Source: Peribolospora baueri (Eukaryota). From it: a stretch of 64,000 nt of DNA. Positions 12,750-48,196 of this stretch are shown piece by piece. The first letter of the stretch is position 1. Each line of letters begins with the position of its first letter. A program made the translations under genes and the position numbers. Below the pieces are notes generated by a model. The model saw only the letters and a program-made list of their open reading frames with translations. It made no database searches and was not told the DNA's origin. The DNA lies in contig JAMDHS010000012.1 in assembly GCA_029717555.1 (NCBI GenBank), positions 186,001 to 250,000 of the forward strand. The letters run 5' to 3'.

Positions 12750-13121
12750 GGTGGGGACGAAGACGACCTTTTTCTTCCAGCGTCGTTCCGAGTCCTGCAA
12801 TTGATCGATGAGCAGCGGTCAGGGCAACAGCTGATTAGAGTTGGTTGTATTGCCGCTTGAAATCGTCCTCGTCATGCCGCGTCGTCGCCCGCCCGCGTCC
12901 TTTGCTTTGTGCGACCATCACGGGCAGATTGGGATCGCAGAGACAGCTCAGCTCGTCTTTCCGCCTTGTCCTCTCCCGTTCATCTCTCCCTCCCTTCGCC
13001 TATTTCGTCTTTTCGCACTTCGTGCAGCATCGCACGCTTCTGTCTTTCTGCGGCACTGGCTGTCCAGCGGCGACGGCCGTCGCACCGCCTTCATCCCCGC
13101 GTGGGGCACCGAGTCGTGGCC

Positions 13122-16100
13122 ATGTCCAGTTTCAGGACGCCACCCGAAGGCGTGGAAGTTCGACGTCACCAAAACACAACCTCCCACCGTGAATTGCCCC
13201 CTCCCTCATTCATCGCCGACCTGCTCAACTCGTCTTCCATCTTGGACCCGCCGCCCGCATCGAACATGGCCAACCTTCCTCGCCCCGATTCACCTCGGCG
13301 CTCACCGCTGCCCGACCCCACGACACTTACGAGAACGCTCAGCAGGCCTGGCTCCGATCCTCTTTTACCCCACCCTGACACCTTTTCCAGCCTGCCCAAC
13401 CATCTCAGCAGCCTGCAGATCGCCGCAGAGGTGGCGAGGTTCGAGTATTTCAGGGATCATCCACGACCGCGCCCAGTCGGCGACCCCGAGTCGGGCCTTG
13501 GCACCGACGAAGGTCGACGCCCTTCCAGGTTGCAGCAAGGAGAGACGCCCGGGGAGAGAGCATGGTATGCGTCCGGCTGGCTCGCTTCCTCTCTCGAACA
13601 ACCCGACTCGGAAGAGGCACAAGTTCGAACCCACGCCGATGCGTGGGATCGACTGGTCGCCGACCTCGGCTCTTCCTCGCCCTCATCTCTCTACCCGTCT
13701 TACGCCTCCCCCTTTGCGAGCTCCTTTGCGCACGTCTATCACCGCCTCCAACCACATCCCATTATGGCTCGTCGATATCCCGGCCCAGCGGGCGAATGGC
13801 TCCGTGCCGAGCTCGAGCGGAGAAGTGCTCCTCAAGCTGGGCGTAGAGAAGGGACGGATCGGAACAGACGCTGGATGAGCGGCTGGGGAGCAGGTACAAC
13901 TTTTGACCAGAACTTGGCCGAGTTTGACCTCCGCTCCTCTGAGAGGCAAGCCGAGACGGACAGGCCGGGACTTGGTCTGAGTGACTCGACTCGATTGACG
14001 GACGCGGACGCTCAACGGCGCGCTACGCTCGTCCGATTGCTGCCGCGAGTTAGATTGAGTGCGGACAACTCGATAACCGCTCCGGACGATATGATGAACC
14101 TCAGCGATACCTCTAGTGAGTCCTCCAGCAACGATCTGCCAACGCCGACAGGCGACTACTCGCGGGGAAACAACCGAGACGAGGAGGACATGGTATTAGA
14201 GGGCAGTTATCTGTTGAACGCCCGGAGGCGATTGCTCGGGACCGCAAGGGCTCTTCAGAGGGAAGAACAGGGAGCGGGGAGGGAGTGGTCAGTAGTGAGC
14301 CACCGTCGTTCCGGCCGTAGGCCTTTATCATCGGATACGTCGTCGGCGTCGACGCTCACTGGCACAGTCACGCCACAAGCGTCGCGTGAGCCCGTGCGAC
14401 CGTCGGGCGCATTTGCGCGTGCGTTCCCTCTGTCCTCGCAAGCGGAACGACGTCCTTCTTCCTCCGGTACACTTAGTAGCACCGCACCTTCTTCTTCCGT
14501 CGCTCGACCAGCTTTGCATGCAAACGCTACCGTACCCCCGCCTCCTTTGCCAGGTCAGCCAATTCCCGTCTACGCGCCCTCGGGCTTACGCCATCGACCT
14601 CTCTCTCCTCGTCCCTCTGATCCGTCTTCCACCACTGCCGCCACCGCTACCCCTCCGGTTCCTCGTATGATCCCTCGTGATCCGGTCGCCGGACGCGAGC
14701 AGCCTGCACGATCTTTCTCAGGTTTGCTCGCGCATCTCGACGCTTGGAGCGGGAGCCCTGAAGCCATGGAGACGGACGATGATCACTCGGGAAGAGGATC
14801 GCGAAGTGTTGACGGGAATGCCGACGACGACGCTGGCGCGACCGGAGGAGACAATTTCGGCTTCGGAGGCCCAAGACGCTCGCGGCTGTTGGCAATGCGT
14901 CCTTTGGATCGACAAAACCCTTCGAACGCTGACGACCATTCCACGGCGGGCGGTCGCACGGAACTGCGGGTTGGCGTTGGTCAAGCCCGTTCAACTCGAC
15001 GTAGGGATGTTTGGCAGGGCGCCAGCGAAGCGGACCGGGAGGCGGAGCAGGCTCGGAGAAACAGGAACAGGAACAGTGTGGTCACGACACGGGAGGACGG
15101 CGAGTGGACGGTGGTAGGCAGCGAAGCGGCGGACGCTCGGCGGACCCCCTCGTTTACGATCAACCCCCCAGCCGCCTCAGCGTCTGAGAACGCCGCCGTA
15201 CAAGAGGCGACGGCTGAGCTGGCTTCCACTCTGCGCACCCTTCGCGACACGTTTACTTCTTGGGATGACGAACGGCTGCGCCCTGGTCGTTTCAACGACT
15301 CTACGGAGTTGCTTATCCGCGCTCTCGCTCATCTCGATTCGCCATCCCCTCCGGCTGACGCCGGGGAGGATGAAAACGCACGCCATCAGACCGTCGACAA
15401 CGGCCGACTGAGAGAGCTGCGCGTGCCCCGTAGACAAGCCTCTCTCAGTCAGTCCGAGCTCGAAAGCTTTCAGCGGTCGTCTGATCGCTCGGTGTCGTTC
15501 ACCGACCAGCAACGGCCGTCTCAGAGCTATTCTCGCGGTGATGGAGATGGGCATGCAGCGGCGGCGGGTGGGGTTCGCATGCAAGCGCTAGGCAGCGGCG
15601 AAAGCATCGGCACCGGGGCCAACTTGGTTCGAAGACGAAGCATGCGCGAGAGTCTTGTTCCGTCGGGGCTCTCTATTCGTCGACAGCGCCACGCTGCGCT
15701 TGGAGAGCACCGCATGGGCACGGCAGCGTGGGGCGATGATGATATGTCTGTCGTGGCGACTGCCGGGTCAGAAGAGACAAGAGACCGCCGGATGGAAGTC
15801 GAGGACAGCGGTGCCCAGTCAGATGACGACAAGGACAACTCCGCCTCTTCCTCCGCCGTCGACGGTCCCTCTTCTCGTCCACTCCACTCCCTCCCTTCGC
15901 GACACACGCTGGCCTCTCGCTCCAACCTTAGGCGCGCCGGGCGCGCCGGTACCGGCACTGACACAGGCGCGTCCGTGAGAGGTTCGGCGGCATCTCGACG
16001 CGAACGGCCTCCCTTGAGGGCGGTTTATCCGCCCCAGCCACGCTTACCCTCTACGCTCTCGACAGCCACCTACCCGCTCCGATTCGAGCTCGTGGAGAGC

Positions 16101-17789
16101 AACGACGATGATCCCGTGCTCAGCACAGCCGTCAACAGCGGCGCCGAGGATGAGCATGAGAACGGCAACGAGAACGACGATCGCGACCCCCCTACGCCCA
16201 CCGCTGCCTCGTCTGCACGCGATATCTTGGGCTCGGGCACCTCCGTCGGTTCATTGCATCGTCGCTCGTCCGTTCTCAGTGGCCAAAGCGGCACAGCATT
16301 TAGCCGTGGTCAGTTGAGCCCAGCTCGCGCAGCTCGGGCGATCCGTGGCCTACGCGTGAGGCGGAGCAGCGTGGGCGATGCGAGGAACGTGTTCCGCAAC
16401 GACGAGAGCATTTACAGGACCAGACGCGGTCGCAACGTCGACCTTGTCATGCGCTTTCTCGTCGCTGTGCCGCCTCATTCGTCTTCGACTTCGTCGTCAT
16501 CGGCGCTAGCTGCAGTGGCAAATTCCAGTCAGCCTCCCTCTGTGTCCACGGCGACGGCGGAGCATAACGAGGCTGAGGGCGAGCGTGTCGCCGGATTGTC
16601 TCGTAGGGGTTTGGAGGGGAGCCATACCGAGTCGGGGTTGCAGACGGCAAGGCTGGGTGACGTAGAGGACGTAGGGATGGCGAATGTGGATGCTTCTCAG
16701 CCTGCACATGCAGAGGAGCTGGAGCAGGAAGAGGTGGAGGACCGAGGTCCCATATTCACCCTCACGAGGATGGTTCTCAAGGTGCCGGCGAGGAGAGGAG
16801 CGGCGGCGGTCAGGTGCGTGCACTTGACTGATTCGCTCGCTCTGCCATTGCCAGACGGTGGCAATATCGGAGACATGACGGGACGAAAGGGTTCGCTCAC
16901 CTCTCTGTCTTCGTCCTCGAATTCTCCTTGTGCTGGAATGCCCGGGTGTAGCGAGGGGATGGTCTTCATCAGCTTCGACCCCATCTGTCCGGAAGGTGAG
17001 CGCGTCTGCAGAGCGCTGGCAGTTGGTTGCTTCGCTGTACTGATCCAGTCCATGCGGCTGTCAGACCTCGCATACTACAATGATTTCACCGCGTCGGACG
17101 TGCAGGATCTCGTCGATCGTACCGGCATCGTCGGCCCCGGTCTTGCCCCCTCGGCGCGCACGGCCCCTCACCAGGTGGAAAGTGGTGGGAACCGGCGCCA
17201 GAGGGAGGAGGTCGAAGGAAAGGAGGAATTCGAGCAGGAAGGAGACGCCGACAGGGGAACCTTCAAGCGACGTCGGCTGAACGGGTACGGCAGTAATGGA
17301 TTGGGTACTGACGCCGACTCCGAGGCAGGCGACGCCGATGCTCGGTTCGATCCAGCGACCGTCTCCCCTAGCTTTGCCGCCCTCCGAGTCAGTTCCCCTG
17401 CCATCGCTCCTAATCCGCCCCGCCCTCCCATTCTTCCCGCAGCTTTCTTCTCGTTCCCGCCCTCAACTTATCAGACCGAGCTTAACTTCCTCGACCAGCC
17501 TCAAAGGGGCCTCGGGGGTCGCTATGTCGCCGTCAAGCTCCTTCGCGCAAGGAGGGATCCGGAGGCTCTGGTTACGTTGTCAAGGTTGACCGGGGCCGCG
17601 CGAACGGAACCGGATCGGAGCTCGCGCTCGAGGCCAGGAGGTGCTGCCGGTGGTGCAAGACCAACGAATGGAGGAGAGGAAGGGGTGGAGGACGCGGAGT
17701 TGTACTACGATGACATGGAGGTGCAGTGGGTCGGCCTCATGGGCTACACCGGCAGGAGGTCGTTCCAGAGCTCCGGCGAGCTCATTTGA
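13122..17789 (+). CDS. large, mostly disordered hypothetical protein with a conserved-looking beta-rich C-terminal domain
   Basis: Long ORF (12909-17789) with first ATG at 13122 and two probable in-frame introns (16814-16951, 16996-17064). Ordered blocks: NVFRNDESIYRT, FTLTRMVLKVP, EGMVFIS, GRYVAVKLL, DMEVQWVGLMGY. Confidence 0.8.
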   Translation: MSSFRTPPEGVEVRRHQNTTSHRELPPPSFIADLLNSSSILDPPPASNMANLPRPDSPRRSPLPDPTTLTRTLSRPGSDPLLPHPDTFSSLPNHLSSLQIAAEVARFEYFRDHPRPRPVGDPESGLGTDEGRRPSRLQQGETPGERAWYASGWLASSLEQPDSEEAQVRTHADAWDRLVADLGSSSPSSLYPSYASPFASSFAHVYHRLQPHPIMARRYPGPAGEWLRAELERRSAPQAGRREGTDRNRRWMSGWGAGTTFDQNLAEFDLRSSERQAETDRPGLGLSDSTRLTDADAQRRATLVRLLPRVRLSADNSITAPDDMMNLSDTSSESSSNDLPTPTGDYSRGNNRDEEDMVLEGSYLLNARRRLLGTARALQREEQGAGREWSVVSHRRSGRRPLSSDTSSASTLTGTVTPQASREPVRPSGAFARAFPLSSQAERRPSSSGTLSSTAPSSSVARPALHANATVPPPPLPGQPIPVYAPSGLRHRPLSPRPSDPSSTTAATATPPVPRMIPRDPVAGREQPARSFSGLLAHLDAWSGSPEAMETDDDHSGRGSRSVDGNADDDAGATGGDNFGFGGPRRSRLLAMRPLDRQNPSNADDHSTAGGRTELRVGVGQARSTRRRDVWQGASEADREAEQARRNRNRNSVVTTREDGEWTVVGSEAADARRTPSFTINPPAASASENAAVQEATAELASTLRTLRDTFTSWDDERLRPGRFNDSTELLIRALAHLDSPSPPADAGEDENARHQTVDNGRLRELRVPRRQASLSQSELESFQRSSDRSVSFTDQQRPSQSYSRGDGDGHAAAAGGVRMQALGSGESIGTGANLVRRRSMRESLVPSGLSIRRQRHAALGEHRMGTAAWGDDDMSVVATAGSEETRDRRMEVEDSGAQSDDDKDNSASSSAVDGPSSRPLHSLPSRHTLASRSNLRRAGRAGTGTDTGASVRGSAASRRERPPLRAVYPPQPRLPSTLSTATYPLRFELVESNDDDPVLSTAVNSGAEDEHENGNENDDRDPPTPTAASSARDILGSGTSVGSLHRRSSVLSGQSGTAFSRGQLSPARAARAIRGLRVRRSSVGDARNVFRNDESIYRTRRGRNVDLVMRFLVAVPPHSSSTSSSSALAAVANSSQPPSVSTATAEHNEAEGERVAGLSRRGLEGSHTESGLQTARLGDVEDVGMANVDASQPAHAEELEQEEVEDRGPIFTLTRMVLKVPARRGAAAVRCVHLTDSLALPLPDGGNIGDMTGRKGSLTSLSSSSNSPCAGMPGCSEGMVFISFDPICPEGERVCRALAVGCFAVLIQSMRLSDLAYYNDFTASDVQDLVDRTGIVGPGLAPSARTAPHQVESGGNRRQREEVEGKEEFEQEGDADRGTFKRRRLNGYGSNGLGTDADSEAGDADARFDPATVSPSFAALRVSSPAIAPNPPRPPILPAAFFSFPPSTYQTELNFLDQPQRGLGGRYVAVKLLRARRDPEALVTLSRLTGAARTEPDRSSRSRPGGAAGGARPTNGGEEGVEDAELYYDDMEVQWVGLMGYTGRRSFQSSGELI

Positions 17790-18335: not shown

Positions 18336-21300
18336 TCACATGCGCGCCAGGTTGTCAAACCCTTTGGGAACCTATTGACCCGGGAGTCGAGGTTCGAGCG
18401 TAAAGTAGTGCCATCTTCAGTACCGCATCTGGACGGATAACTGCGGCAAAGAGTTGAACCAAGAAGTCATGTTACGAATGGGAGTGGAAAGGAAGGCTCA
18501 CCTTCCAACCGTGTGTGTTTGCTGCGCGTCTGTAGCCTGCAATAGCCTCTGTGATCGTGTAAGGCCTGTTATAGTCGTACGGGCGTATTGATGAGTATCA
18601 GAACGTTTGTGCGAGCTCGTTTTCCGTCAGTGACCTCCGCGCAGTCTTTGGACCACTCACCCAGTTGTACGCGAGCCTCGCCGGACGCGGCTCGCCGTCG
18701 GAGATGGCTAGCCTAATCTGCATGAGTACCGCTTCCATGGAGTAACTTTTGTCCCAGCCGCTGTCGGTGAGCTGGTTAATCAATGCAGAAGAGAACACGA
18801 AGGCGGAAGGTGCACAAATATCAACTATCGGCTTATGAGCTCAGGATGCCAGCAAGTCGGGTATCACGCCAACGCCATCCGACCTGTGCACTGACCAAGT
18901 CAATACAAATCGAACCGCCCCCGGTGATATGCCCTCCACCGCCCTCCACGAAAGGAAGGACTCGCGGTGTAATGAGCCGGACGAAGGGCGGCGTAGATTT
19001 ATAGTCGGGTGGGAAGCGGATCTCAAAGAGGAACGAGTTGATATTGCTGTATAACCGCACGTCGTAGATGTGCAGAACAATGCAACTCCATGAGTACAAG
19101 TTCCGATCGCCGCCACCAAGGGGCGGAGGAGTATGACCGCAAAAAACGCACGCACTTCTTCTTCATGTCTTCTGCTATCGGTGAGCTGGGGTCGAACGAG
19201 TGCAGTTCGACAATCCACTGGAAAAGGTTGTCCTTGTTCTTATTGAACTCGGGAGGCTGTTCGGGGGCGCCAACAGAGGAAAGACGACGTGGCAAGGAAG
19301 GAGCAACGTAAACACTGTGACCCCCGAAGACTTCTCATTCCATAAGAAAGCGGATGTAAAAACGGCTCACCAAGTAAAACCCGAGCTCCTTCAAGCTCTT
19401 CGCCTTGTTCTGCAAGTTAAGCACCGCATCGTACTCGAGCTTGACTGCCCTTGCCGCCCCCCTAGATGCTTCGTCTGGCGGCGGCAGCAGCTTGACTAAC
19501 GTATGGCTGATTTTCCCTGGTTTCTAGTTGCCAAGAAAAGATGAGCATGCGAGACGACGTCAGTCATGTATAACAATGAGGCTTCTACCTCAACGGCTTC
19601 ATAAAATCGGGCCCTTTCTCACCCAATCGTCCTTGGGGCGGATGGGCAGCACCGAGGCCGCCTTGTGCAGGCTGAAGACGCGGTGACCATCCTTAGGAGC
19701 TTTATATTTCTTTCCCTGCAGGACGGCCCGATCTTCCTCGTCATACAAGTCGTCTCTGCGTTCGCCCCGCCTCGCCTTGACCAGCTGGTCGATTTTTCCC
19801 TGCATGCTCGGGATCTGAACCAGTTCGTTTTCGTAGTAAAGCGGGTATGAAGGATCTTGGTCAATCAAGGCGGTGACTGACCAGCCTGCGGCGGAAGCTT
19901 TGAGTTTGTGGCTCGACCCATGGAACGTCTCCACGACGAGGTAACTGTAGGGAGTCGACTCCTAAGTATAAGCAGGTTTGTTGAATGGATACGACGGCGT
20001 GGATAGCAACTCACCGGGCCATGATCCAGTCGGTGTTGTCAATGACCAAGGCCGGGGCCCTGCAGACGAACCTCTTGGGCTGATTGACGATCTCGGCTAT
20101 CAATAACAATGCGCATGGGCGCAGTTGACTAGACCGCCAGAAGGTGGAAGTTGTCTTGGAGTATTTTCGCATCATCTTCCCGTCCCTCGAGAAGTAGACA
20201 CCATTTCCATGCGATCGGCCGTGCTTCATCTACGAACCGAAAAGAGGCGCCTGTCAGACAAGTCCCGATGTCCATTCAGCCGCAGGTTCTCACCATTTTG
20301 TAATGCAAACCGACGCGGATTATCTGGAAGGGAATGAGGCAAACGGGGAGCGAAGTCGGCTCACCGACCTCTCGCATAGAAGCAACAACCCAAAGGAGAG
20401 AAAGTAGACTTACTGAATGCCAGTCTTCCACGCAGCTTCCATGAAAGGCGTATATTGTAGGATACAGAACTGCGTTATGGTCCTTTGCCTTTGCGTCCTT
20501 CACCGCGCGCCGAAACCGTTCCTCTTTATTGGGCGCTCCGAACAAGAAGCGAAACTGGCGCCACTCGTTGTTATCTGAAGTCCAGTAGGCCGTAGATGGT
20601 GAGAAGTGGGGGATTAGCCATTGTCGGATACGACGGGCGAGGAGAAGACGCACGCAGAGACACGAGGTCGTCCTCGTTAGTAATATCCTCAATGTGGGCC
20701 TGACAGGAAGCGACGCACCTGTATCGAGACGTCCAAGACAATCCAGCCGTCAGCTCGGTGATCACGCGTGAACCAGGCATGGACTCAGGACCGACCAACG
20801 GAGGACTTTCCAAGCAGCAGGAGCAATCTCCTTGCCATGGGATTTATCCGCTATGGTCTCAGATTTCTACATACAGTAGAGAGGTCACGGAGTCAGTGGG
20901 TGGCCCTGATGGAGGGGGGTGAACATTCCACTCACGACCGTGAAGGGCAGCCTGTCAAAATCGACCAATCCATCCGATCCCGGCCCCACTGCGTCGCTGG
21001 GGGAGTGGTTACTCTGATGCGTGGGCTGGGAGCAATTGGGTGTCGGGACGCGAATGCCCATGCCCGTGGGCAGACTCCCGTCAGGTTGTAGACCCCCGTC
21101 CCGGGCGGCCACGTACGTCAGCGAGACGAGGAGATCGACGACCGTCGGGTTGTTGACGATCTCGCGTTCGACGGACAGGCCGAGTTTTAGCTTATAGTAC
21201 TGGTCCGCACAAACTTCGGATTCGCAGACGTGACTTCGACACAGGGACGCGCACAAGGTCAGCCTCGCATTCACCGCGATGCAAACGGGTCGAAACTAGG

Positions 21301-23369
21301 AACTCTTCGTCCTCACGGAATGAGCGTCTCAATATCAGTACCGGTCCTTTTGTGACATACCACGCAATACAGAGCGCTGAGCTGCATGCGCGCGAAGATG
21401 AAATGCCTGGGTTAAGTTCTGAGCCAGATACAGGCGCCAACCACGTTCCAAAGGTGGCGAAACGGAGAACTCACCATCAGCCTTCTGACGAGAAAGGAAT
21501 ACGCCATCCAAGGCAAGTTTTGATGCGAGGTTTTGGCCGTGTCGAGATAAAGAGAGTCGGCCGGAAGGGTGTGCCGCCATCTTACATCCAGTTCAGCCTG
21601 ATCGGCGTTGTTGATACCCTGAACGCGACGGGAACATGTGAGACGTTTGCACTGAACTTCTCTGCGTAGGATGAGAACTATTCAGTGCTTACATCTTTGA
21701 ACCTTTCAAAGACGCGATCTGGCCGTTCCTGCAGCTCAACGACCTTGGCCAGGAGCAACTCCGCGCCAGCCCACCCGATTTCAAACGAGATGCGAAGGTC
21801 GACAAGGCGCATAAATTGGTCGTTGAGGACGCCCTCGAGACTCTCGCTCAGAGAGAAGCCTTCAAAGTCTCGTTTTTCGTCTTCTCCTGACGTTCCCTGG
21901 ACTCCCTCCGCTGTCTGCAGCAAGACATTGCGACAAGGCTTGGACGATTGGCACAGACCGACGTGGAAGTTGATAGAAGTCTCAGGAGACACCGAGAAGG
22001 TGCGCTGGGTACGAGCCACTTCGTCGAGCGAGTACGGGTCCTGCAGGCCACCGATAATTAGGACGAGATGATACGACCTTTGCCAAGGCGAGGGGAGGTG
22101 GTAGGAGAGGACAGACCACCAGTTCAACGGCAGGGATGCGATAAAGCGGAGACACGCTCAACTCACTTCTCCAGCAGACGCGGATCCCGGGCTATGAGAA
22201 CTTCGGGTTCAATACCGAGATCGAGTACCCTGCAAGATACGGCGAGGGTAAAAGAGGTAGGAGAGAAGCGGGTCATGCTGGGCTGGTAGCCGGCTGAAAT
22301 CACTTGCTTGAAGTCGCTGCACGATATAAAAAGGGGAAGCGAGTTTATGTCACACAAAAGAGCCGATGGACAAGAGACGACTACAAAGACAGACGCATAT
22401 GCAAGACGCTGACCTTTGCAAAACTTTAAGCTGTTTCTTTTGGCCGCCGAAGCAGTCGTCGTCGTCATCATCATCATCCTCTTCAGAGCGATTCCCGTCC
22501 TCGCCATCGTCGCTCGGGAGGGGCGAGGAGTCGATTTTGTACGGGCTCGCGAAGAGGTGTCGGGGCAAGCTATAGACTCCGTTGGCGATCTCCTGAACGA
22601 TGAAGACAATGGTATCATGGAGAGGTCTAGGCTGAGCGGTGGATACAGATTTAACGGCGGCGGTCGCTGATAAGGGGTGAGCATGAGACGAGCGCAGACG
22701 AGCGATGTGAGATCCTTTGCAGAGCGTGCGAACAAAGAAAAAAAAAAGAAGGGTTGTAGACTCGCCATCGGCAGAACTTTCGTCATTCAACGTGGCGACG
22801 ACGGAATGAGCCTTCGGGTAGTCATTCGTGTCTGTAGAGGGGGAAGAACGAGCCGACGAGTCAATAGCCGCGCCCGGTGTCGGTCGAACGAGAACGACAA
22901 ACGCATACGAGTAATGACGAGCGTCACAGAGCAATCGATGGCAGGAGAAGGCCCTCCCTCTACGTCAATTACCACATGACATGTGCCTTCGTCCCTTCCC
23001 TTGGTGAGGCCTGCGAAAGAAAACGTCGGGCAGGCGGGAAGTGAAGACGAATGAAGGAGCTCCCTGGGCGCCCAGATAGGGGCTTGACAGAAGGGAGAGA
23101 AGGACGAGTGGCTCACGATTAACGATCGCAACCCCGTGGTCGTCGACCGCCCACGGCTTCTTTCGAGTCAGCTCATCTACATCATCCAAGAAGCCGCGAC
23201 GTCCTATCTTGGCGCGGGTGCTACCTCCTTGCCAGCCGGTCTCGCCCTTGCCGGCCGCTCGTGTGGTTATTGAAGTCGAAAGAGCCGAGCCTCCGTCGGC
23301 GCGTTTCTCCTGCGCCTTGGCCTGAGCAGCCTTGATGCGTGTACATAACCAACTGGAAGAGGTTTTCAT
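18336..23369 (-). CDS. PARP6/8-like ADP-ribosyltransferase fused to a C-terminal ubiquitin-conjugating (UBE2Q-like E2) domain, many exons
   Basis: Spliced motifs: YCVVCHK...HVCESEVC (four Cys), YAFHGS..WHSIIRVGLHY, HGRSHGNGVYF, IAEIVN. The E2 part reads DNLFQWIVELHSFD, FEIRFPPDYKSTPPFVRLITPR, GGHITGGGSICIDLLTDSGW, YSMEAVLMQIRLAI. Last exon VPKGFDNLARM* (18336-18371). The start at 23369 is tentative. Confidence 0.9.
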
Positions 23370-24789: not shown

Positions 24790-27700
24790 TCAGAGCTCGT
24801 CGTCCGTGAAGACCTCCTCGCCGCGCTTCCTCCGCGCGATGCGGTCCTTGCGGGCCTTCCTCTGCTCGCTCGACGTGAGCTTCTTCTTCTTTTCTGCCTT
24901 GGCAACCTTGTTGCCAAGCGCGTCGAACGTGTCCTCCTCGTCGCCCTTCTTCTGGTCGATACGGGGCCCGGATCCTTGACCCTCGACCCAGTTGTGGCCG
25001 GAAGCGACGAGATGGCCCTGGTGGGGGGAATGAAAAAGGGAGGAAGAGGCGTCAGTGAACATTCATTATATATATATGATTAAACAGACTGCAGAGGGCG
25101 TCGGTCCACGCAAAGGATTGGACACTCACGTCCTTCATGCTCCAGACTTCCGTGCAGATGCTCTCGGAGAATTCGCGCGAGTGGGTGATGACGAGCACAC
25201 CACCCTCGAAGACCTTGAGGGACTCGATGAGCGCGGCGAGCGACTCACGGTCGAGGTAGTTCGTCGGCTCGTCAAGGCAGATGACGTGCGGCCTGCGCCA
25301 CGTAGCGGCGGCGAGGACGACCTTGACCTTTTGGCCTCCGGAGAGACCGCGCATGGTGTTGTGCGAGACGAACTCGGCCTCGAGACCAAAATCGGCGAAG
25401 TGCTTCTCGATCTCCTTGCGGACGAGCGGACGGAGGAGACCAAGGCGCTGGGCTTCCTTCGTGTCGATCTCCATGACCTTCTTCTCGAAACCGCGGGTGA
25501 TGAGCTCGTCACGGGACATCCAGATGTTCTCCGTGGACGAGAGACCCTTGAAGCTGATCTCGTAACGGTAGGACTGCTTCTCCTTCAGTCGGCCGACAAT
25601 GTCGTCGATGATGCGCTTCTGGCCCTCCACGATGACCGTGCCGCCTTCCTTCATCTTCTTCTCGTCCTCCTCGGTGACCTGGCGGTTGATCTTGGACAGC
25701 TCCTCGCGGTCCTCACCGGTCTGGTAACGCCAGATCATGTAGTCGAGCGGAGTCTTCTCGAGGTGGTGGTCGATGTGGTGGAAGGCGTGCTGGGCGACGT
25801 AGCCGATGACCAAGTTGGGGTGCTTCCACACCTCACCGCCCTTGTTCGGCTCCGTCTCGCCGACGAGCAGCTTGACGAGGGTCGACTTGCCGGAACCGTT
25901 GGGGCCAAGGACAGCGACACGGGAAGAGAGCGAGACCTGGAGGGTGACGTCGTACAGCTGCTGAACCTTGGACGTCGGGTACTGGAAGCCGACGTTGCGC
26001 ATCTTGAGCAATGACTTCTCCTTGGTCTTGACACCGTCAAGAAGGGGAGGGTCGGGGATCTTGAAGTGGTAGTCCTCGGCCGGCGAGAGCTCGTAGTAGG
26101 ACTTGGCCTCGGGGACGTGCTTGACGAAAGACTCGAGGTTGCCCGGGTAGCGCTTGACCTTGAAGTGGTTCAGGTGGAGCACGTCGGTGATAGTGTTGTT
26201 GAGGAAGCCAGAGTCGTGGGACACGATGATGGACGTGCATTGGGTGAGCGAGGTGAGATAATCCTCGAGCCACTTGACGTTGAGGACGTCAAGGTGGTTC
26301 GTGGGCTCGTCGAGGAGGAGAATGTCGGCCTTGAAGAGCATGGCGCGGGCGAGCGCGAGCTTCATCTTCCAACCGCCGGAGAGCGAGCCGATGGCGTGAG
26401 TTTGACGGTCGTCAGAGAAGCCGACGGACGCGAGCGTCTTGGCGACCTCTTCCTTGTCCGCCTGGATGCGCTTGTCGGAGACGACAAATTCGAAAACGGA
26501 GGTGTCCTCCTCGGAGCCGTCGATGTCGTGCTCGACGTAGAAGGTGCGGACCTCGTCGGGGGAAGGGAAACCCTCGACCTGGCCGTTGACGATGGCCCTC
26601 ATGAGCGTAGACTTGCCGGAGCCGTTGCGGCCACAGAGACCGTAGCGGTGACCACGCTTGAGGCGGAGGGTGGCCGTGTTGAGGAGAATCTTGGCGCCGT
26701 AGGCGAGGGAGAACTGGCAGTTGCAGAGGTCCTCACCCTCCTCCTCGTCATCAAAGGCCTCGACCTCGTCACCGGCGCTGCTCGCGCTCTTCTCGAGCAC
26801 CTGGCGGATGATGCCGTGGGCCTTGTGCGGGTCCTCGGGGGTGGCGAGGACGACGTACGGGCTGAGGGCCTGCTCCCACTCGGTCGCCTCGAAGTTGCGA
26901 GCCTGAGCAAGGTTGGCGGCCAAGGTGGCGATGTAGTGGACGAGGGTGGCGTCGACCTTGGAAGCGTCCAGACCGGCGTCCTTCATGGCGTTGTTGAACA
27001 GAGGGCCGGTGATCTTGGCATCGATGACCTTGGGAGGGGGGAGGTCGGTGCCGTCGCCGTCGATCTTGCCGACGGAGCGGAGGGTGGCGATGGCGCGGTT
27101 GACGACGCCACGGGCCTCGGGGTCAGCGACCGTGCTCTCAATCTTGATGAGACCGGGGAGAAGCTTGGGCAGGAAGGGGCGGACGGTGTGCTCGTTGTCG
27201 ACCAGCTTGGACATGTTGTCGATGATGACGGCGACCTTTCGCTTCGTGGCTGTCGGCCTCTCAGTAAGACCACGAGAGAGCAAGGGGGCCATGAGCGAGA
27301 GGGTGGGCGAGTCGACCTCCTGGACGAAGGTGGTAGCGGAGAGAAGCTGGATCGTCTTGGGAACCTCCTCGACGGGGTTGATGAGCGAGGAGATGAGAGC
27401 GGGGATGAACTTTTCAATGTCCTTGTTGGACACGAGAGCGCACGCCTTGGTGAGGGAGGCGCGAGCGGCCTTCTTGACGTCGGCCTTGGTGTCCCAGATG
27501 GCGTCGGAGAGAACGGGAATGATGTCGGGCATGCCGCGAGCGATCTGGTCGGCGGACGAGGTGATGAGCTGGTCGAAGACGTCGAGCGAGCCCGTCTTGA
27601 CCTGCCACTTGCCAGCCGTGGTGATCTGGTGGAGGAGCTTGGGGAGGATGGCCGGCGTGGTCCAGGGGCTGGCGATCTGAACGAAGCTGCGAACGGCGTC

Positions 27701-28093
27701 GGCGGCAGCCTGACGGGCGCCCGGCGTCTTGTCGGCGAAGGCCTCGAGGAGCTGGTCGAAGACCTTCTCGACGATGAAGGGCTCCACCTCGTGGCCGACG
27801 CCCTGCTCGCAGAGCGAGGAGATAAGCGCCGCGGCGCCCTCGCGGGCGGTGGCGTTCTTCTTGTCGTTGAGACCCTTTAGGATGGCGTCGGCGACGCCGA
27901 GGGTGGCGACGCCCGAAGGGCCGTTCACCTTGACGAAGTCGACGAGCTCCTGAACGGCGCCCTTGTCGGCCGACTCGATGATTTTGGTGACGTCGATCTG
28001 GGCCGCGGCGGCGTCGCCGCCGGCGCCAGACTTGACGTCCTTGGCGGGGACGGTGGCGGGGGTACCAGCAGAAGCGAGGGCAGCAGGGGCCAT
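24790..28093 (-). CDS. TEF3: fungal translation elongation factor 3 (EF-3, ABC-F)
   Basis: HEAT-like N-terminus, two ABC cassettes (GRNGSGKST, LSGGW, LLDEPTNHLD; GPNGSGKST, LSGGQKVK, LDEPTNYLD) and a basic tail. One intron (25018-25129). About 1063 aa with strong GC3 codon bias. Confidence 0.97.
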
Positions 28094-30919
28094 GTCTGTA
28101 TTTCTGGAAGCCAGGAAGAGAGGGGAGAAGAGCAGTGGAAGGAGGTGCGGAAAAGAGAGGAAGGGAGGAAGGATGATTGGTGGCGTAGGTGAGTGAGGGT
28201 GGGGGTGGGGGGCGTGAAGGGCGAAGGCGGAAGGAGGGAAAAGGGAGAGAGAAAAAAATTCAGTCGGTGCCCTGGAGGTGCGGAAAAGAGCGGCGGGAGG
28301 CGGTCGGCGGCCAAAAAATTTGGGAGGCGTTTGCCACTCACCCGTGTATCTAGCGGAGAGAATAAGTTTGTTCGAGACTTGTCTAGTCTAAGAGGAGCGT
28401 TACGACGAGGGTAGAGAGACGGTGGCGAAGACGAGTGGGATGCCGTGCGTGGGTAGATAGAGGACGGGTAGGTGGTGCCTGCCTGAGGAGGTCGTCGAGG
28501 GAGACCGAAAGGGAGACGGTGGCGTGGGTGGAGGGAAGAGCGAAGAGGTATGCTCTATGATCCTTTTTAAGAGTCTACTGGGTGGCGAACGAGGCCAACA
28601 AAGAAAGACGGCGACGAAAGCGGTGGGGAGGGGATGGGGATGGTGGGAGGGTGAGGAGGAGGAGATGGTGGTCCGCTCCCAAGGCCCCCTGTCTTCCGCG
28701 CGCCTTTTCTACTCCCCACCGCCTAAGCCGTGCCCTGCCCTCCGACCCGACGCCACCGCGCCCGACCGCAGTTTTTTCTCGCCTTTGGGCCTCCGTCCCT
28801 CCGTCCCTCTCGTCCCTCTCTCTGCCTATTTCCTTTCCTGGCCTCCTCTGCTTGCCCCTTTCTTGCCCTCTCTCCCTCCCCATTCGAGCCCGCCTTCGCT
28901 CCCTCCCTGCGCTTCCGTCTGAGCCTCGCCGAGTGTCCGCTCCGGGTGTGAGTGGAGGAAGGAGTGCCACACACATCTTCCACCTATACCATACCGTCTC
29001 GTCTCCTGGCGAAGCAAGCAAGCAAGCGACCGTACTTTCTTTCACTGCACCGGGTGGGGATGGGAAGCATAGCGTTCATGTTGTCCTACGCTGGCCGGCG
29101 GTACCGTCAACGCAAACGAACGGGACGGCGACCGGCTCGGGCAGGCTGTCAAGTGCCTGGGGAGGCGTCGTCTTCAAAAGCGGGGGGTGCTCTGACCGCG
29201 TTGAGACAGACCAGACAAGACAAGAAAGGAAAACGAGTTGCCTGGAGCTGTCCGTCCGCGAGGGCACGGCATGAGACTTGATGAGACTGGGGCCGCGGGC
29301 CTTCCGAGGGAGGCGGCGTGAAATTTGTCTACCGGGCCAAGATGGCGGGCGCGGCTGAGGTCGGAGGAAAGGCAATCGTTGGTTTCACTTTGGCTTTTAC
29401 TTCACTTTCACTTTCACTTTCATTGCCCCTTTTGGACACCTCAGACGCGCCCTCGGCCTCGCCCAACTGCTTACCGACCGTCGCCACCTGATCCGTCGGA
29501 ATGTCTCGACCCGACCACACGCCCGCCCATGTGCCCGCCCATGTGCCCCCTTCTTCTGACACAGCAACTGCAACATGGATCGGACGTCGCCCGACGCGCG
29601 TGCTTACCTAACCTACTCAAAAAAAAAAAACTCGGCGGCGGGCGCCACAATAGCGAGCGTTGCCGTGTCGTATCGGCTCGGCTCCTTTTACGCTGTCCCC
29701 GTCGCCGCCACCGCACCCGTACCTACAACCAGACATGTGGCGAGCTCGCTCCGCCCGCATTCGGATGGTATGGGAAGCCAGTCTTCTTTCCGTTCGTCCC
29801 CAGGTGGTGGGGAAGGAAGGATGGAAGGATGGATGGATGGATGGATGGAGTGTCCAAAGGCGAGCGGAACGAGTGGTGGCAAAGGACGACGACGAGGACG
29901 AGCGAGCAAGCGAGCGAGTGGGCGCAGTTCGTTCTTGTGTGTTCGCCATCCAAATCCAAATATCCAAATGACAGTGTAAGCAGGGTCGCCTCCAGCCAGC
30001 CCATGCGAGGCATCACACGATACAGTATCGGACTTGGATTTCGAGAATGCGAACAGACGAGCGAGCGAGCGCATCGTCAGTCAGTCTGGCAAGGCTCGAT
30101 CGAGTGCGTAGGACAATGGAAGCGGGAAAAAAGCAAAGCAAAGGGGCAAACGCCGTGCCAACATCAAATTCCAACGAACGACACATGGCGCGGGCGAAAG
30201 AAAGGAAGGAAGGAAGGAAGGAAAGAGTGTGCACATCATACAAAGAAACGGGAGTGAAGCCGGGAGTGAAGGGAGGGGAACAACCAAAGAACCGAAGTCA
30301 GGGGCGCGGATGGATCTGAATCTAGATCGAGGGCGAATGAAGACGAAAAGATGGAGAGGGAACAGAAGGAAAAAAAAGATGCTGCGACCGATAAAAGCTT
30401 TTTAAAAGAAAAAGGAAAGAAAGCGGGGACCGGGAGGCGAGAGTCGGGAGGGAGTACGACGAGACGGGACGAGAGTGACGACACGGGACGGAAGGGCGAT
30501 GGAAAGCTACAGGTGACGGAATACGAGGGGAGAGGGACACATACACAGACACAGAGACCCGGGTTGGATGGACGGATGGAAGGAAGGGTGCGAGAAGGTC
30601 GTCTGGGACGTGTGACGATAACAAAGAAAGCGAGCCTTCGATCTCTATCTATTGCTATCGACGGGCCGAGAGAGGGAGGGAGGGAGGGGAAGGAAGACGG
30701 GGAGGGAAAAAAGATAAGGAACTTTGGAAGGGAAGGAATGTGAGGTCTCGCGAAGAGATAGAACGAACGGACAGAGGGATATGCAACGAAAGCGAGGACG
30801 AATCGAGAGAAAAGAGGGAAAAAAGACGGTAGGAGGAAGAGGAGCAAGGTAAAGGCCAATGGACGGCCCACGTCCGCACGAGCAAACGCGACTTTGGCCG
30901 TACCTCATCCCCGCTCGGC

Positions 30920-33575
30920 TCACAGCGCCTGCCCCGGAGACGGCTCATGCATCAGCGCCAGACCGTCCGAGTCCCTCCTGGGATGGGCCGACCACTCGCC
31001 CCCGCCCCCGCCCCCGCCACCATCCGCGCTTTCGCCGCCTTCGGCCGACGGGATGCGAGGGGAGGAGGAAAGATGGGAAGAGGGGACCTCGGATCTGCGC
31101 TTTTCACCGCCCGCGCCCGTGTCGGCGGCCTCGACGGCCATCTGCCCGTACGGATACGCCTCGGTATCCTTCTCGTACGCCGCCGACGCCTTCTCGGGAG
31201 CGAGGGAGCGGCGGTAGAGGAGGACGCCATAGAAGAGGTCCCAGAAGGTGTTGAAGATGATCACGACGAGCACGATGCTCTGCACCGCCAGGAGCACAAA
31301 GCCGATGATGGCGCGCGGTAGGGGGCGCACGCCGACAGTGTCGACGAAAGCGATGCAGATACCCCAGGTGGCCATGCGGGCAAAGATGAGGAAGAGCATC
31401 AACGCATCCGACCGCCTGTCTCGTCCCGGCCGGCAGACGATCCAGGCGATGAAGAGGAGCGCCTCGACGACGAGACAGCCGATCACCTGGCGCAAGGCGT
31501 ATGCCTGGGCAAAGGCGATGAAGCAGGCGCGGATGAAGGCGGCGAGGAGGAGGACGGCGACGAACCAGTAGTATTTGGGCCGGAAGGGGTGAGATAGACC
31601 ACCCCAACGCTTGACGAGCAAGCTCGACTCTGCGGGCGGGGCGACCTTCTTGTCGTGATAAAGGGCGGCGGCGCCAAACCTGTGTGCGCTGCGCACGACG
31701 GGGAAGGCGAAGAGAGCAGAGGTGGCCAACAGGAAGGCGAGCAAGACGGCGGCCAGAAAGATGGACAGCCACGAGTCGTGCACGGTGAATTGATAGAAGA
31801 TGAAGATGAGGAAGGGAGGGTAGGCGACAAGCACGAGCCGGGCGAGGTAGGTCAAGGTGAACGCGCCAAACTCTTTCGGTCTGGAGAACCTCTCGGCCCA
31901 CCGCGCCAAGTCGCCTGCCAAGCCCGGCTGGGTCCGCTTGCCTGTCGTCCCGGCGGCGATCGCACGGACAACGACGTAGATGAGGGCGAAGAGACCGACG
32001 CCGAGGGCGAGGAGCATGAGGAAGGTGATGAGCACGGTGAGGAAAGCGTTGGTGGGGGCAATATGGAGGCGGGAGGTGAAGGTGGGAATACCAGCCGGAA
32101 TGGTGCCATTCTCAGAAACGACCGGGATGGAGGACGTGTTGCCGATCAACCCGTTGGAGCCGATCCCGATCGAGTTACCCAGGCCGCTGGAAAGCGAGAG
32201 GGGCTTGTGGGGCGTGAAGGCAAACGACTTTGCCATAAAATCGACGGGATGGGAACCCCCGCCTTTGCCCTCGCTCGCCATCGCGGCGAAGCTCAACCCG
32301 GAAGGGCCGCCGGATGCGAAAGAGGGGGAAGCTCCAGAGCCTAGGTTGTAAGGGCTGAACTTGCGGTTTGAGTAGGCGTTGGGATCGTACAAGCTGGCAT
32401 CGCTGGCGTTGCCGCCGGTGGCGTTGCGCGTGGAGTCTATGGAATGTTGTATGCTGGGGATGTCGAGCAAGCCGAGGAACCAGCCAAAATTGGCAGCGAA
32501 CTCTTGGTAAACGACGGGGTAGTTGAGGGACAGCAAAGAGGTCGCGGCGACGTGTTGAAGGTACCAGAGCACGTCGACGATGCGCCATTGCGCTGCGCCG
32601 TTGGATCGAGGGAGCATGGCGTGAAGGAGAGAGGAGACGAGGGCGACGAGGGCGAGAGCGGCCATGCCCCATGACACTGCGTTCTTGCGGACGGTGTGGC
32701 CGTTGGAGAGCGTGGTCTGCATGCACGCTGCGATCTCGCCGGTGTCTGTGCGTAAGAGCTCGACCCGTGCGACGGCCTCGAGATCGGGCACAGTGTAGGC
32801 CAGCGAGGGAATCTTGTCGGCAAACTCGGCGGGCACATTGAAGTATCCGGAGCCTTGGAGAGAGAGATAGATGGATGGATGGATGGAATGAGTGCTCGAG
32901 CTGCTCGGTCCGGTCGTCACGAGGCACGCATAGAAAGAGCAGCAGCTTCGTCCCTCGTCGGCGTCGGCATGGGCGACTCACCGGCAAAGTTGGCCTGAGG
33001 CAGCGGACAGAGCGCCCCGCCGGCGACAGTGCAGAGGTCGACGGTCATGTTGACGGCATCGATGCCGTACGCGTTGAGGAAGATGTTGACATCGACGTTC
33101 AAGTTTTCTTCTACCGAGGCGGCGATGATGTCGAAGGTGACGGTCTCATTCTGGCGGTAGTAGTGCAGATCGAAGCGGTCTACGAGGATGGCCTGCTGTG
33201 GGGAGCACAAGGTGGTCGAGGAGGTGTCTGCATGGTGAGCGCGATGAGGCGATGGGACGAGAAGGGCGAGAAAGAAAAGGAAGAAGAGGGGGAGGGGGCA
33301 AAGGTGTCCGTCCGTCCGTCAACGTCACCGCACCGCGATCGGAGGGACGAGCTAGCTCGGCCGGCGGTCCAACGTGGCACGAGCCGTCGACGACAAGACT
33401 CACATAGCTGGCCGCTCTGGGACGCAGCATCGGCGAACGGCGGCAAGGAAGCGAGAAGAGCGGTAGCAGAAGCATAGGCGAGGGTCGACGTCCACGAGCG
33501 TCTTGATCTCGCCCCTGAGCCGCCACTGGCCCTTCGACGACGGAGGCCGCCGGAAGACGACCGATCGGACGGCAT
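30920..33575 (-). CDS. FLC/Pkd2-type flavin carrier / TRP-like membrane protein
   Basis: Hydrophobic leader, ML-like lumenal domain (YTSSTTLCSP, LNAYG, LCPLP, ACMQTTLSNG), then LSLNYPVVYQEFAANFGW and multiple TM segments (RWGGLSHPFRPKYYWF). Two introns near the 5' end. Confidence 0.88.
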
Positions 33576-40100: not shown

Positions 40101-40354
40101 AGGGAGCGCCTCAAGGGGGGTGCGGACGGCGGGGCTACGGATGCGATGCGGTGCTGCTGTTGTTGGTCGTGGCCGACGGGGGGAGTGGGAGGGGGGGTGG
40201 CGGCGACGTAGCCGGGCGCGTGCTCGTTCTCGCGGAGGCGGTAGGCAGTGTGGGCGGTGTGGACGTGTAGGTTAGGGGAATTGGGCGAGTTGGGGTCATG
40301 ATCCGGGTCTGTGCCCAGGTGGACGATGCGCTGCATCGGGTTGGCGGAGAGCAT
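37169..40354 (-). CDS. Ser/Thr protein kinase, HAL/SAT4/HRK1-type, intronless
   Basis: [66 protein letters not shown]. First ATG at 40354. Confidence 0.93.
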
Positions 40355-41794
40355 GGCGGGCTGGGGCAAGGCGAGGGGGGAGGCGGTGGTGGGTGTGGGT
40401 TGTTGTCGCGGTCGCAGTCGCGGGGATCACGGGAGCGAGAGGGCAGCAGGGCGGGTGATGAGGAGGAGAGGAGCGGCGGTCATGGGCTGGCTGGCGGGAG
40501 GAGGAAGCGGGGTAGGGAGTGGGCGGCGGAGGTGGAGAGGGAGGTGGAGAGGGAGGTGGAGAGGGAGGTGGAGATGGCAATGGGAGATCGAGATGGACGT
40601 GGGAGGTAGAGAAGGGAGAAGGAGATGGATGGATGGTCGACGGCGTACGGAAGGCGGCTGGCTACGTCGTCGTCGGCGTCGAGAGGAAGGAAGGAAGAAA
40701 GCGCAATAACAACCGCAACAAGAAGCGACAAGCCGCGTCCGTCCGCTCGTCTGTTCGTTTCCTCGCGGTGGCTGGCCGGCCGGCTTGGCCTGGGCTTGGG
40801 TCGCGGGTGGGTGGGTGGGTGGATGTGGTGTGGCGGAGGTAATGAGGGAGAGACGAACGAGGGCGAGATATCTAGATGGCTTAGCTGGCTACAGTATGGT
40901 ATATTCTCCTCGGCCGTTCCTTGACGAATCGGCCGGCGCTGGGTGCAGATAGACAGCGAGCGCTGAGTGGAGTGCGCTCGGACGAGACAAGGAAAAGGGA
41001 GTTAAGAGGGAAAGAAAGAAAGAAAGAAAGAAAGAAAGAAAAAAAGAAAAAAAGTCGGCCGGCGTCGTCCGTCGGTCATCGAACCGAGCGGGCCGTGCCG
41101 TGCCGTGCCGTGCCGTTCCTTCCTGCGCTCGCTTGCTCGCTCGCTCGGCCGTCGCCGCCGATTCTTGCCGACGGGGAAGGAGAAACAAGAAAAGAAGACA
41201 GCCAAGGAAGGACGCACGCGGAGAACCAACGCTTACGCTCGCACCGATTCATCCTCCTCGACGCCACGCCCCGCTGCTCGAGCGCTCCTCTCCGCACACG
41301 ACCGACCGACGGGCCCCGATACGATACGCTCGAGTCGACTCGGTGGGTCGTGGTGCGCGTGCTTAAAACGGACGCCGACCGTCGTCGTCCATCCCGCCCG
41401 CCCGTCCGACCGAGGCGGAGAGACACAGACACAGTCCGCAGACACAGTCCGAGTTGGTCATCGATCCTTATCCGCCGTCGCCACCGTCCACCCATCTTCC
41501 CCCGCGCCGCGCCCTCCGGCCACCGACCGGCCCGGGCCCCACGCCGGCCCGCCCTAGCCCGCCTCGTCGCTCGGCGAATGGACAGGACGGGTCACGCATC
41601 CGTCATCTCCGTGCTCGCGTGGCCGGAGATGACGTCAGTCACGCCCCAAGCCGCAGCCAGTTGTCTGTCTGTCCGCGACGACCAACTGGAAACTGTTGAC
41701 TGACTCACTCACTCGCCCGGTGCTGCTAAGCAGGCTGTTAGGCGTGAGTGAGGGTGAGGGAGGAGGAAGCAGACGTCTTCCGCCCCGTCCAAAT

Positions 41795-47537: not shown

Positions 47538-48196
47538 TTCGGCGACGTGGGGAAGGGGTCTGGGCGTACTGGCCCAAGCGTTAGCGGCGATGGTGACGGC
47601 GACAGCGACAAAGGGGTAAACCTCTGAGACAGGTGATCAAGGAGATAGGGGTATATGTGACTGTCTGGAGCTGATACGTGGAGCCTGTCCCGACGCTATC
47701 TTGTCGCCGACGCAGCGAGTGCCGACCGTTTCGACTGGCGCGCGTCTCCGCGGCTAAGTGTTGATGCCCAAGCTCACTCCATCCGACCGAGCGGACACAA
47801 GAAGCTGGCGCACCAGGCGATCGCCGGAACCCGTGATGGGAGAAACGGGTAGGCGAGAAAGGAGGAAAGAGGACAGACGCCCGTGACGATGGTGAGGACG
47901 AGAGCGTGAGTCCGCTCGATTATCGTCTCAGGTGGACGGGGCAGGGGCCGGGGCCGCCATGTAACCCTAATCGTACGCACGTGCATGGTGCTGCGGCAAC
48001 AAGGCGTCCTCAATTCGCGGCTGCGATGGAGTACGGGCATCGGCTCTTTCAGTAGGAGGATGCCATAGTAATGCGCGGTGAAGACGGGTGCTGAGGGAAC
48101 GGAAGGAAGGACGACTGCTATCTATTTCGAACGAGCGCATATTCATCTTTGCTCGTATGTACAAGCAATCCACGCGCGCGTTTATGCGGACGTTCC

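Follow-up and report, generated by a model that had tools for sequence, protein, structure and literature searches.

On the minus strand of the window, i.e., the whole stretch of 64,000 nucleotides that was analysed, lies a gene that runs from position 23369 to about position 18472 and whose approximately 20 exons, once spliced, form a single reading frame of about 1071 amino acids free of internal stop codons. It had been proposed that minus-strand exons join into a single frame here, and the complete chain bears this out. The coding span (18472..23369) was delimited by the absence of internal stops and by tblastn collinearity with P0001, the protein OE88DRAFT_1658981 from Heliocybe sulcata, which has 1170 amino acids and the Pfam domains PARP and UQ_con. 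Residues 239-1161 of P0001 map in order onto 22315-18499, and the remainder of the window gave no match to P0001 at E<0.01. In the 20-exon model, exons 1-5 are located at 23369-23117, 23010-22909, 22831-22766, 22666-22414 and 22316-22167, exons 6-10 at 22077-21693, 21618-21475, 21381-21317, 21233-20936 and 20866-20796, exons 11-15 at 20718-20654, 20574-20414, 20323-20294, 20229-20015 and 19944-19623, and exons 16-20 at 19523-19371, 19256-19156, 19046-18896, 18771-18635 and 18565-18472. The 19 introns measure 64-124 nt each, 18 of them being GT-AG and one GC-AG. Aligned by blastp, the spliced model matches P0001 end to end with E 0.0, 602 bits and 37.3% identity over 1117 columns, which rules out chance likeness. 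The single transcript is predicted from the collinearity with P0001 and the unbroken exon chain. Membership of the PARP-Ubc family, like the gene structure and the signature residues described below, is a matter of direct observation, and the locus very probably constitutes one protein-coding fungal gene and a diverged orthologue within this family (clade 6A PARP/fPARP2). A fungal host fits, as all named matches are fungal and as a gene for elongation factor 3 is found upstream at 25052-28387.

Splice junctions and the limits of the coding part

Three junctions of the model allow more than one reading, the main one being that in the E2 domain. In the N-terminal region (22667..22777, minus strand) a first model had retained a T-rich stretch of about 32 residues as coding, which was revised since the stretch fell in mostly-gap columns of 60 relatives. 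An extra intron ending at 22667 is probable, judged from its splice signals and these columns, either as GC-AG intron 22765-22667 (99 nt) or as GT-AG intron 22777-22667 (111 nt). At the 3' end of the coding part (18417..18501, minus strand) the frame terminates at the stop codon 18474-18472 if unspliced, or at 18419-18417 after a 61-nt GT-AG intron (18501-18441), and both candidate C-terminal tails are about as long as the tails of the relatives. The gene limit of 18336 given in the original prediction has to be corrected to one of these two ends, with the coding part stopping at 18472 or 18417.

The junction inside the E2 domain (18566..18660, minus strand), for which every GT/GC-AG pair was enumerated, determines whether the last E2 helix is read in frame. 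With the donor GTGAGT at 18660 and the acceptor at 18566 an intron of 95 nt is removed, the frame is shifted and the last E2 helix is lost; the first gene model used this donor and was rejected for its frameshifted E2 tail. With the donor GTCACT at 18634 and the same acceptor the intron has 69 nt, the frame is kept and eight loop residues are gained, and the conserved last helix is retained together with a Trp present in 54 of the 60 relatives. Two other in-frame combinations were discarded, namely the donor at 18670, which drops this Trp, and the acceptor at 18547, which drops eight conserved codons. The choice bears on the possibility that the gene is broken in the E2 part, or that the assembly contains a one-base length error there. 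Such a defect would agree with 18660 having the consensus sequence GTGAGT and being the strongest donor, with its 95-nt intron placing exon 19 out of the conserved frame, and with GTCACT at 18634 being the sole donor among the 19 that lacks a G at +5. However, the GT-AG option 18634-18566 is stop-free and in frame and saves the Trp and the helix at the cost of an eight-residue insertion, exon 19 still codes for family-conserved residues when read in this frame, and the remaining gene is open. Moreover, the window's other long frames of 1642, 1111, 1085 and 1035 amino acids are unbroken, so that frequent assembly indels are unlikely. A broken or misassembled E2 part is considered unlikely, and the in-frame junction, with a possible eight-residue loop insertion compared to the PARP-Ubc relatives, is the preferred one.

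Domains and signature residues

The gene had originally been read from the sequence as one that combines a C4 motif, a Glu-less PARP6/8-like mono-ART domain and a Cys-bearing E2 domain, and this reading stands. The parts of the predicted protein were delimited with family profiles for the N-terminal region, the helical extension, the ART domain and the UBC domain, which were built from 45 relatives. The N-terminal, RWD-like or 'FPE' region comprises amino acids 56-325 of the model (21927..23204, minus strand; 140.6 bits). That this part is RWD-like is suggested by the AF2 model of the relative P0001, in which the fold was seen: residues 81-191 match the RWD domain of LTN1 with a Z of 9.5 (rmsd 3.5, 101 residues aligned) and that of Knl1 with a Z of 9.0 (rmsd 2.8, 97 aligned). 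The Pfam RWD family gave no match in P0001 at E<=0.01. The helical extension (amino acids 342-601; 20703..21878, minus strand; 257.6 bits) encloses a C4 motif of the form C-x2-C-x15-C-x4-C (21209..21366, minus strand), the Cys codons of which are located at 21366-21364, 21357-21355, 21226-21224 and 21211-21209, in accordance with the earlier placing. The CxxC part (21366-21355) and the CxxxxC part (21226-21209) are brought together across an 83-nt GT-AG intron (21316-21234). The four Cys are conserved in 60, 60, 60 and 59 of the 60 relatives and invariant in all 45 rows of the alignment A1, and the motif, lying upstream of the ART domain, is a putative zinc finger of the PARP6/8 type.

The ART (PARP catalytic) domain covers amino acids 603-759 (19926..20699, minus strand) and reaches 200.8 bits against the family profile. 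The catalytic His (His662, codon 20443-20441) and Tyr (20196-20194), both named in the original prediction, are in place, as is a second Tyr (20163-20161), and all three are conserved in 59-60 of the 60 relatives. No Glu is found in the strand expected to hold the third triad residue, which separates the domain from the H-Y-E PARPs of the PARP1/2 type; that this position is not Glu had been noted before, and the residue aligned there is Ala (20052-20050). None of the relatives has Ala at this site, which is occupied by H in 28, Y in 24, F in 7 and I in one of the 60. As the PARP16 sequence alignments end before this position, the AF2 model of P0001 served to locate it, at the beginning of strand 840-843; we take it to be equivalent to PARP16 Tyr254. 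Furthermore, Asp is present where all 59 relatives with a residue at that site carry Asn, and the residue before it is Glu, which is Arg or Lys in 53 of the 60. The exchanges of Asn to Asp and of the aromatic residue to Ala bear out the suggested divergence near the NAD site as far as the residues are concerned; its meaning is less certain, as it may reflect lineage drift given that all compared relatives are distant Agaricomycetes. With Ala and Asp at these positions the ART activity may be altered or weak.

It is conceivable that in this lineage the ART part has decayed to a pseudo-enzyme of weak or no activity, carried on an intact E2 scaffold with the ubiquitin side alone at work. This would be in line with Ala at a site that is H, Y or F in 59 of the 60 relatives, with the Asp and Glu exchanges, and with the alteration of 34 of the 205 near-invariant columns of the 60 relatives, 171 being kept. 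On the other hand, the gene retains the NAD-binding His as well as both Tyr, the ART region still scores 200.8 bits, and the third position varies within the family between H, Y, F and I. Mono-ARTs accept several residues at the third triad position. As the compared relatives are all distant, the changes may also be normal for the lineage, and a weakened or lost ART function is regarded as rather improbable.

The ART domain is followed by a linker (amino acids 760-864; 19512..19925, minus strand), through which the exons continue without a stop and which is partly conserved among the relatives and mostly of low confidence in the AF2 model of P0001. The model from ART to E2 is open and collinear within one predicted polypeptide. 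That the two domains belong to neighbouring, separately transcribed genes and that the fusion is only apparent is scarcely credible, since exons 14-17, joined across GT-AG introns, can be read without a stop from the ART domain via the linker to the E2 domain, the relatives share conserved parts of the linker, 108 among the 120 matches listed have both Pfam domains in one protein (10 have PARP only and two UQ_con only, by the precomputed domain column), and the available text of the literature (PMC2964712) defines the family by this fusion.

The C-terminal UBC (E2) domain comprises amino acids 865-1064 (18496..19511, minus strand) and reaches 278.4 bits against the family profile. The active-site Cys (Cys 992) was found at 18907-18905, as had been predicted, and is conserved in 59 of 60 relatives; a His at 18931-18929 is conserved in all 60. 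Ahead of the Cys lies a Gly-rich stretch with one His and no Pro-Asn, so that the His-Pro-Asn triad is absent. By this absence and by its closest E2s, UBE2Q1 and UBE2Q2, the domain is to be assigned, at the level of sequence, to the UBE2Q type.

Profile and structure searches are in agreement with this assignment when the relative is used as query. P0001 exceeds the Pfam cutoffs, which are 26.7 bits for PARP and 27 bits for UQ_con, with 38.8 and 34.1 bits, respectively. The single exons of the gene itself are weak, with UQ_con below its cutoff (E 1.7e-4, 21.7 bits, cutoff 27) and PARP at E 0.18. Among the raw ORF pieces, 11 of 15 gave no Pfam family. Exon 17 alone, which yields the UQ_con value of 1.7e-4, has UBE2Q1 (2qgx, E 0.0018) as best PDB match; a single-exon PDB match to PARP12 is weak (E 0.054), and none of the three PDB matches of the ART exon (20414-20572) is a PARP. 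Compared by sequence with the PDB, P0001 matches UBE2Q2 (1zuo, 3.4e-19), UBE2Q1 (2qgx, 2.8e-18) and PARP16 (4f0d, 1.4e-5), and the A1 profile matches the same entries with 3.6e-23, 1.1e-21 and 1.4e-12, respectively. The structure check was likewise done on P0001, and a PARP16-like ART fold and a UBE2Q2-like E2 fold were seen in its AF2 model (pLDDT 77.1): UBE2Q2 is matched with a Z of 17.3, and residues 544-860 match the helical extension and ART domain of PARP16 with a Z of 18.6 (rmsd 2.8, 222 aligned). Foldseek with this model gave PARP16 at E 3.7e-8 and 1zuo with a TMt of 0.83. Of 8000 candidates scored for the family, 462 proteins reached E<=0.001. HMMER with exon 21693-22076 gave 85 matches at E<=0.001, mostly short fragments, with best representatives at 34-42% identity and no close relatives at E<=1e-30. 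A word-index search with the piece 20888-21295 matched P0001 alone (one of 372 candidates), and such a search with the ART exon 20414-20572 gave no match.

Comparison with known enzymes and possible ADP-ribose-ubiquitin coupling

The fusion architecture is published and has been described since 2010; it is real and not new. Clade 6A PARPs were reported to carry a C-terminal UBCc domain (Citarelli 2010, PMC2964712), and for fPARP2 a review gives the order RWD, 4C* zinc finger, helical extension, beta-barrel, ART and UBCc, with its activation still to be established (PMC13720257). According to a 2026 preprint, 322 out of 534 fungal genomes contain PARP-Ubc (bioRxiv 10.64898/2026.07.25.740670). 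The original prediction had stated that fungi have such fusions and that these are poorly characterised, and the literature, in the parts available, agrees. The predicted protein shares the identical order of parts over its whole length with fungal PARP-Ubc proteins (P0001; A. fumigatus Af-PARP2). At 1071 amino acids its length is comparable to the average of about 1154 reported for the family. It differs in its identity to the nearest named relative of only 37-40%, whereas P0001 shares 45-77% identity with the other 44 Agaricomycete proteins in A1.

Among human enzymes, PARP6 and PARP8 are alike by description, having a C4* zinc finger, a split RWD, a helical extension and a Glu-less mono-ART domain (PMC10450202). 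In contrast to the PARP-Ubc gene they have no C-terminal UBC domain, and no PARP6 or PARP8 chain was among the matches of the PDB searches with the P0001 sequence and the A1 profile. For the helical extension and ART domain as modelled for P0001, PARP16 gives the best match among solved structures; it differs, in the published description, by lacking the zinc finger, the RWD and the E2 and by carrying a transmembrane helix at its C-terminus (PMC10450202). UBE2Q1 and UBE2Q2 are the best E2 matches by sequence and fold and have, as here, a Gly-rich stretch before the Cys and no His-Pro-Asn; an N-terminal RWD is likewise reported for UBE2Q proteins (PMC10971424). UBE2Q1 Tyr343, eight residues before the Cys in the alignment with P0001, is replaced by an invariant His in the fungal family, and the fungal E2, unlike UBE2Q1/UBE2Q2, is fused behind an ART domain.

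From family knowledge, the ART domain would bind NAD+ and modify itself or substrates with single ADP-ribose units, and would be unable to build chains owing to the absent Glu. An E1 would load ubiquitin onto Cys 992 (18907-18905) of the E2 domain, which may pass it to hydroxyls besides or instead of lysine, because the His-Pro-Asn triad is missing as in UBE2Q enzymes. The discharge of ubiquitin onto Ser, Thr and sugar hydroxyls is reported for human UBE2Q1 and UBE2Q2 only (PMC10971424). The probable role of the RWD and zinc-finger parts is to bind partners or to position both catalytic domains. We infer the two enzymatic activities, and with them any coupling of the two, for this protein as for the family as a whole. 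The original prediction had proposed such a coupling, by which hybrid ADPr-ubiquitin marks would be made or read, and this is kept as a hypothesis.

It was reported that DELTEX E3 ligases, together with PARP9 or PARP14, esterify ubiquitin to a ribose hydroxyl (PMC7615817, PMC12000418). These are separate RING-DTC proteins and not E2 enzymes, no RING or DTC was seen in the PARP-Ubc gene, and the resemblance, hypothetical as it is, would be a functional one only. By analogy, the UBE2Q-type E2 may esterify ubiquitin to the ribose hydroxyl with no DELTEX-type E3 involved. That the fused protein in this way writes ADP-ribose-ubiquitin hybrid marks all by itself is a long shot; in a partial search of the literature no title or abstract was found that reports a test of PARP-Ubc as such a writer. 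If true, hybrid-mark writing would apply to the whole fungal PARP-Ubc family beyond this single locus. The locus as such adds an ordinary orthologue to a published fusion family, the biochemistry of which is little explored in the literature available. Testing PARP-Ubc as a one-protein writer is timely because UBE2Q enzymes ubiquitylate hydroxyls and ADP-ribose can be ubiquitylated. For comparisons of activity, the diverged copy described here, whose third triad residue is Ala, could act as a natural variant.

Structure and surroundings of the PARP-Ubc gene

GC content is high in the window (0.53-0.66 in 2-kb bins), and its minus strand contains numerous short open pieces from 23369 to approximately 18400. 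It was found by tblastn that P0001, the 1170-aa protein OE88DRAFT_1658981 of Heliocybe sulcata and the nearest named relative, matches this region collinearly between residues 239 (at 22315) and 1161 (at 18499), and that the rest of the window outside the PARP-Ubc gene gives no match to it with E<0.01. Exon borders were chosen by coordinates. A first model, whose 20 exons were separated by 19 GT-AG introns (61-124 nt long), showed 39.8% identity to P0001 (E 0.0, 933 columns); comparison with 60 relatives revealed it to be faulty, with about 32 residues falling into mostly-gap columns and the E2 tail out of frame. The revised model, derived by listing every candidate splice pair, has 20 exons and encodes 1071 aa without internal stop; against P0001 it reaches 602 bits (E 0.0), with 37.3% identity in 1117 columns. 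It starts with the ATG at 23369, the first in-frame ATG downstream of a stop. The stop codon is at 18474-18472; splicing of a final 61-nt intron (18501-18441) would move it to 18419-18417. In the N-terminal region it includes a probable GC-AG intron (22765-22667, minus strand) with the donor GCGAGT, for which an alternative GT donor is present 12 nt upstream at 22777.

Two donors, 18634 and 18660, are located 26 nt apart in the E2-encoding part and use the same acceptor. The consensus donor 18660 shifts the frame in the E2 domain, whereas the weak donor 18634, the only one of the 19 donors lacking G at +5, keeps it. The in-frame intron (18634-18566, minus strand) is favoured over the 18660 form, because exon 19 in that frame encodes the conserved residues of the family and the remaining gene stays open. 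The donor pair may also serve alternative splicing yielding a truncated E2 form. Judged from the sequence, the PARP-Ubc locus is a real, intron-rich gene and very probably a single one.

The neighbours are ordinary fungal genes, and neither a mobile element nor a gene cluster connected with the PARP-Ubc gene was seen in the window. They encode a TRP-like channel (30920-32977), a protein kinase (37169-40426), a leukotriene A4 hydrolase-like peptidase (47967-49310), a cyclin-like protein (58080-59171) and a NAP protein (61292-62506). A 1035-aa minus-strand frame at 44529-47636 was assigned to peptidase C54 (Atg4-like); its sole Pfam match is partial (residues 820-1016, profile positions 3-57 of 276) and the frame probably continues through introns. 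A low-complexity open frame of 1642 aa on the plus strand (12861-17789) is convergent with the PARP-Ubc gene, towards whose 3' end it runs; it has a high content of Ser, Arg, Pro and Ala and no Pfam match at E<=1e-4. Directly upstream of the PARP-Ubc gene, the elongation factor 3 gene occupies 25052-28387 on the same (minus) strand; its uninterrupted frame of 1111 aa encodes two ABC transporter domains in addition to the N-terminal HEAT repeats of EF3.

Family membership and domain architecture

The query piece 20888-21295 matched a single protein, P0001 (E 7.7e-13, 41% identity), which carries precomputed Pfam PARP and UQ_con domains; a Pfam scan of P0001 scored these at 38.8 bits (cutoff 26.7) and 34.1 bits (cutoff 27), respectively. 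Searching with P0001 residues 480-1170 yielded 462 proteins at E<=0.001 among 8000 scored candidates. Among the matches listed (120 of the 462), all named ones are from Basidiomycota, nearly all from Agaricomycetes, and precomputed Pfam assigns PARP together with UQ_con to 108, PARP alone to ten and UQ_con alone to two. Two Agaricomycete relatives, P0024 and P0092, have ankyrin-repeat Pfam domains besides PARP and UQ_con, which may reflect gains specific to a lineage or gene models that were merged.

Region profiles built from an alignment of 45 named relatives (A1) were scored on the spliced model of the window, resulting in 140.6 bits for the N-terminal region, 257.6 for the helical region that encloses the zinc motif, 200.8 for the ART and 278.4 for the UBC domain. 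The model keeps 171 of the 205 near-invariant columns of the 60 relatives. The catalytic and zinc-motif positions proposed in the original prediction were all recovered: the four Cys (21366-21355 and 21226-21209, minus strand) are joined across an intron with the spacing C-x2-C-x15-C-x4-C, the ART His662 and the Tyr are at 20443-20441 and 20196-20194, and the E2 Cys992 is at 18907-18905. Among the 60 relatives, the zinc-motif Cys are kept in 60, 60, 60 and 59, the ART His, Tyr and second Tyr in 59, 60 and 59, and the E2 His and Cys in 60 and 59. By these sequence comparisons, the gene belongs to the known fungal PARP-Ubc family as a divergent copy.

Comparison with solved structures gave matches to UBE2Q2 (1zuo), UBE2Q1 (2qgx) and PARP16 (4f0d), with E values of 3.4e-19, 2.8e-18 and 1.4e-5 for the P0001 sequence and 3.6e-23, 1.1e-21 and 1.4e-12 for the A1 profile. 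Of the single exons of the window, exon 17 matched UBE2Q1 best (E 0.0018), exon 13 matched only PARP12, and that weakly (E 0.054), and exon 11 (20414-20572) gave no PARP match among the structures. An AF2 model was made of P0001 with A1 as input alignment (mean pLDDT 77.1, pTM 0.59). Foldseek placed PARP16 at the top for this model (E 3.7e-8) and 1zuo at a TMt of 0.83. In VIA-align, residues 544-860 superimposed on PARP16 (Z 18.6, rmsd 2.8, 222 aligned), the model on UBE2Q2 (Z 17.3, rmsd 2.5, 157 aligned), and residues 81-191 on the RWD domains of LTN1 (Z 9.5, rmsd 3.5, 101 aligned) and Knl1 (Z 9.0, rmsd 2.8, 97 aligned).

Published descriptions and proposed function

An N-terminal RWD-like "FPE" domain was described in fungal PARP-Ubc proteins (PMC2964712). 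PARP6 and PARP8 were described as having a split RWD and a helical extension together with a C4* zinc finger (PMC10450202). For fPARP2, a 2026 review lists RWD, 4C* zinc finger, helical extension with beta-barrel insert, ART and UBCc, and states that its activation is still to be established (PMC13720257). Of 534 fungal genomes, 322 have PARP-Ubc according to a preprint, which assigns the UBCc to the UBE2Q subfamily (10.64898/2026.07.25.740670). Thus, the fusion of C4 motif, ART and E2 proposed for this gene matches an architecture that was already in print. UBE2Q1 and UBE2Q2, which have an N-terminal RWD and lack the His-Pro-Asn triad, were reported to ubiquitylate Ser, Thr, glycerol and glucose (PMC10971424). 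The ART domain would catalyze mono-ADP-ribosylation, the E2 Cys would be loaded with ubiquitin by E1, and this ubiquitin could be passed on to hydroxyl groups, as UBE2Q enzymes do. Coupling of ADP-ribosylation to ubiquitin transfer is hypothesized for the whole PARP-Ubc family.

Divergence of the Peribolospora protein

The protein shares 37-41% identity with named relatives, compared to 45-77% between the other A1 members and P0001. When exon 5 (21693-22076) was used in a full HMMER search, no match reached E<=1e-30 and no close relative emerged, the top matches being 34-42% identical. The predicted divergence near the NAD site is partly borne out against the 60 relatives and may be the norm of the lineage, as the compared relatives are all distant: the ART has Asp where all 59 relatives with a residue there have Asn, Glu where 53 of 60 have Arg or Lys, and Cys where relatives carry Pro, Ala or Gly. 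In line with the original prediction, Glu is absent from the strand expected to carry the third triad residue; Ala (20052-20050) aligns there, and the 60 relatives have His (28), Tyr (24), Phe (7) or Ile (1).
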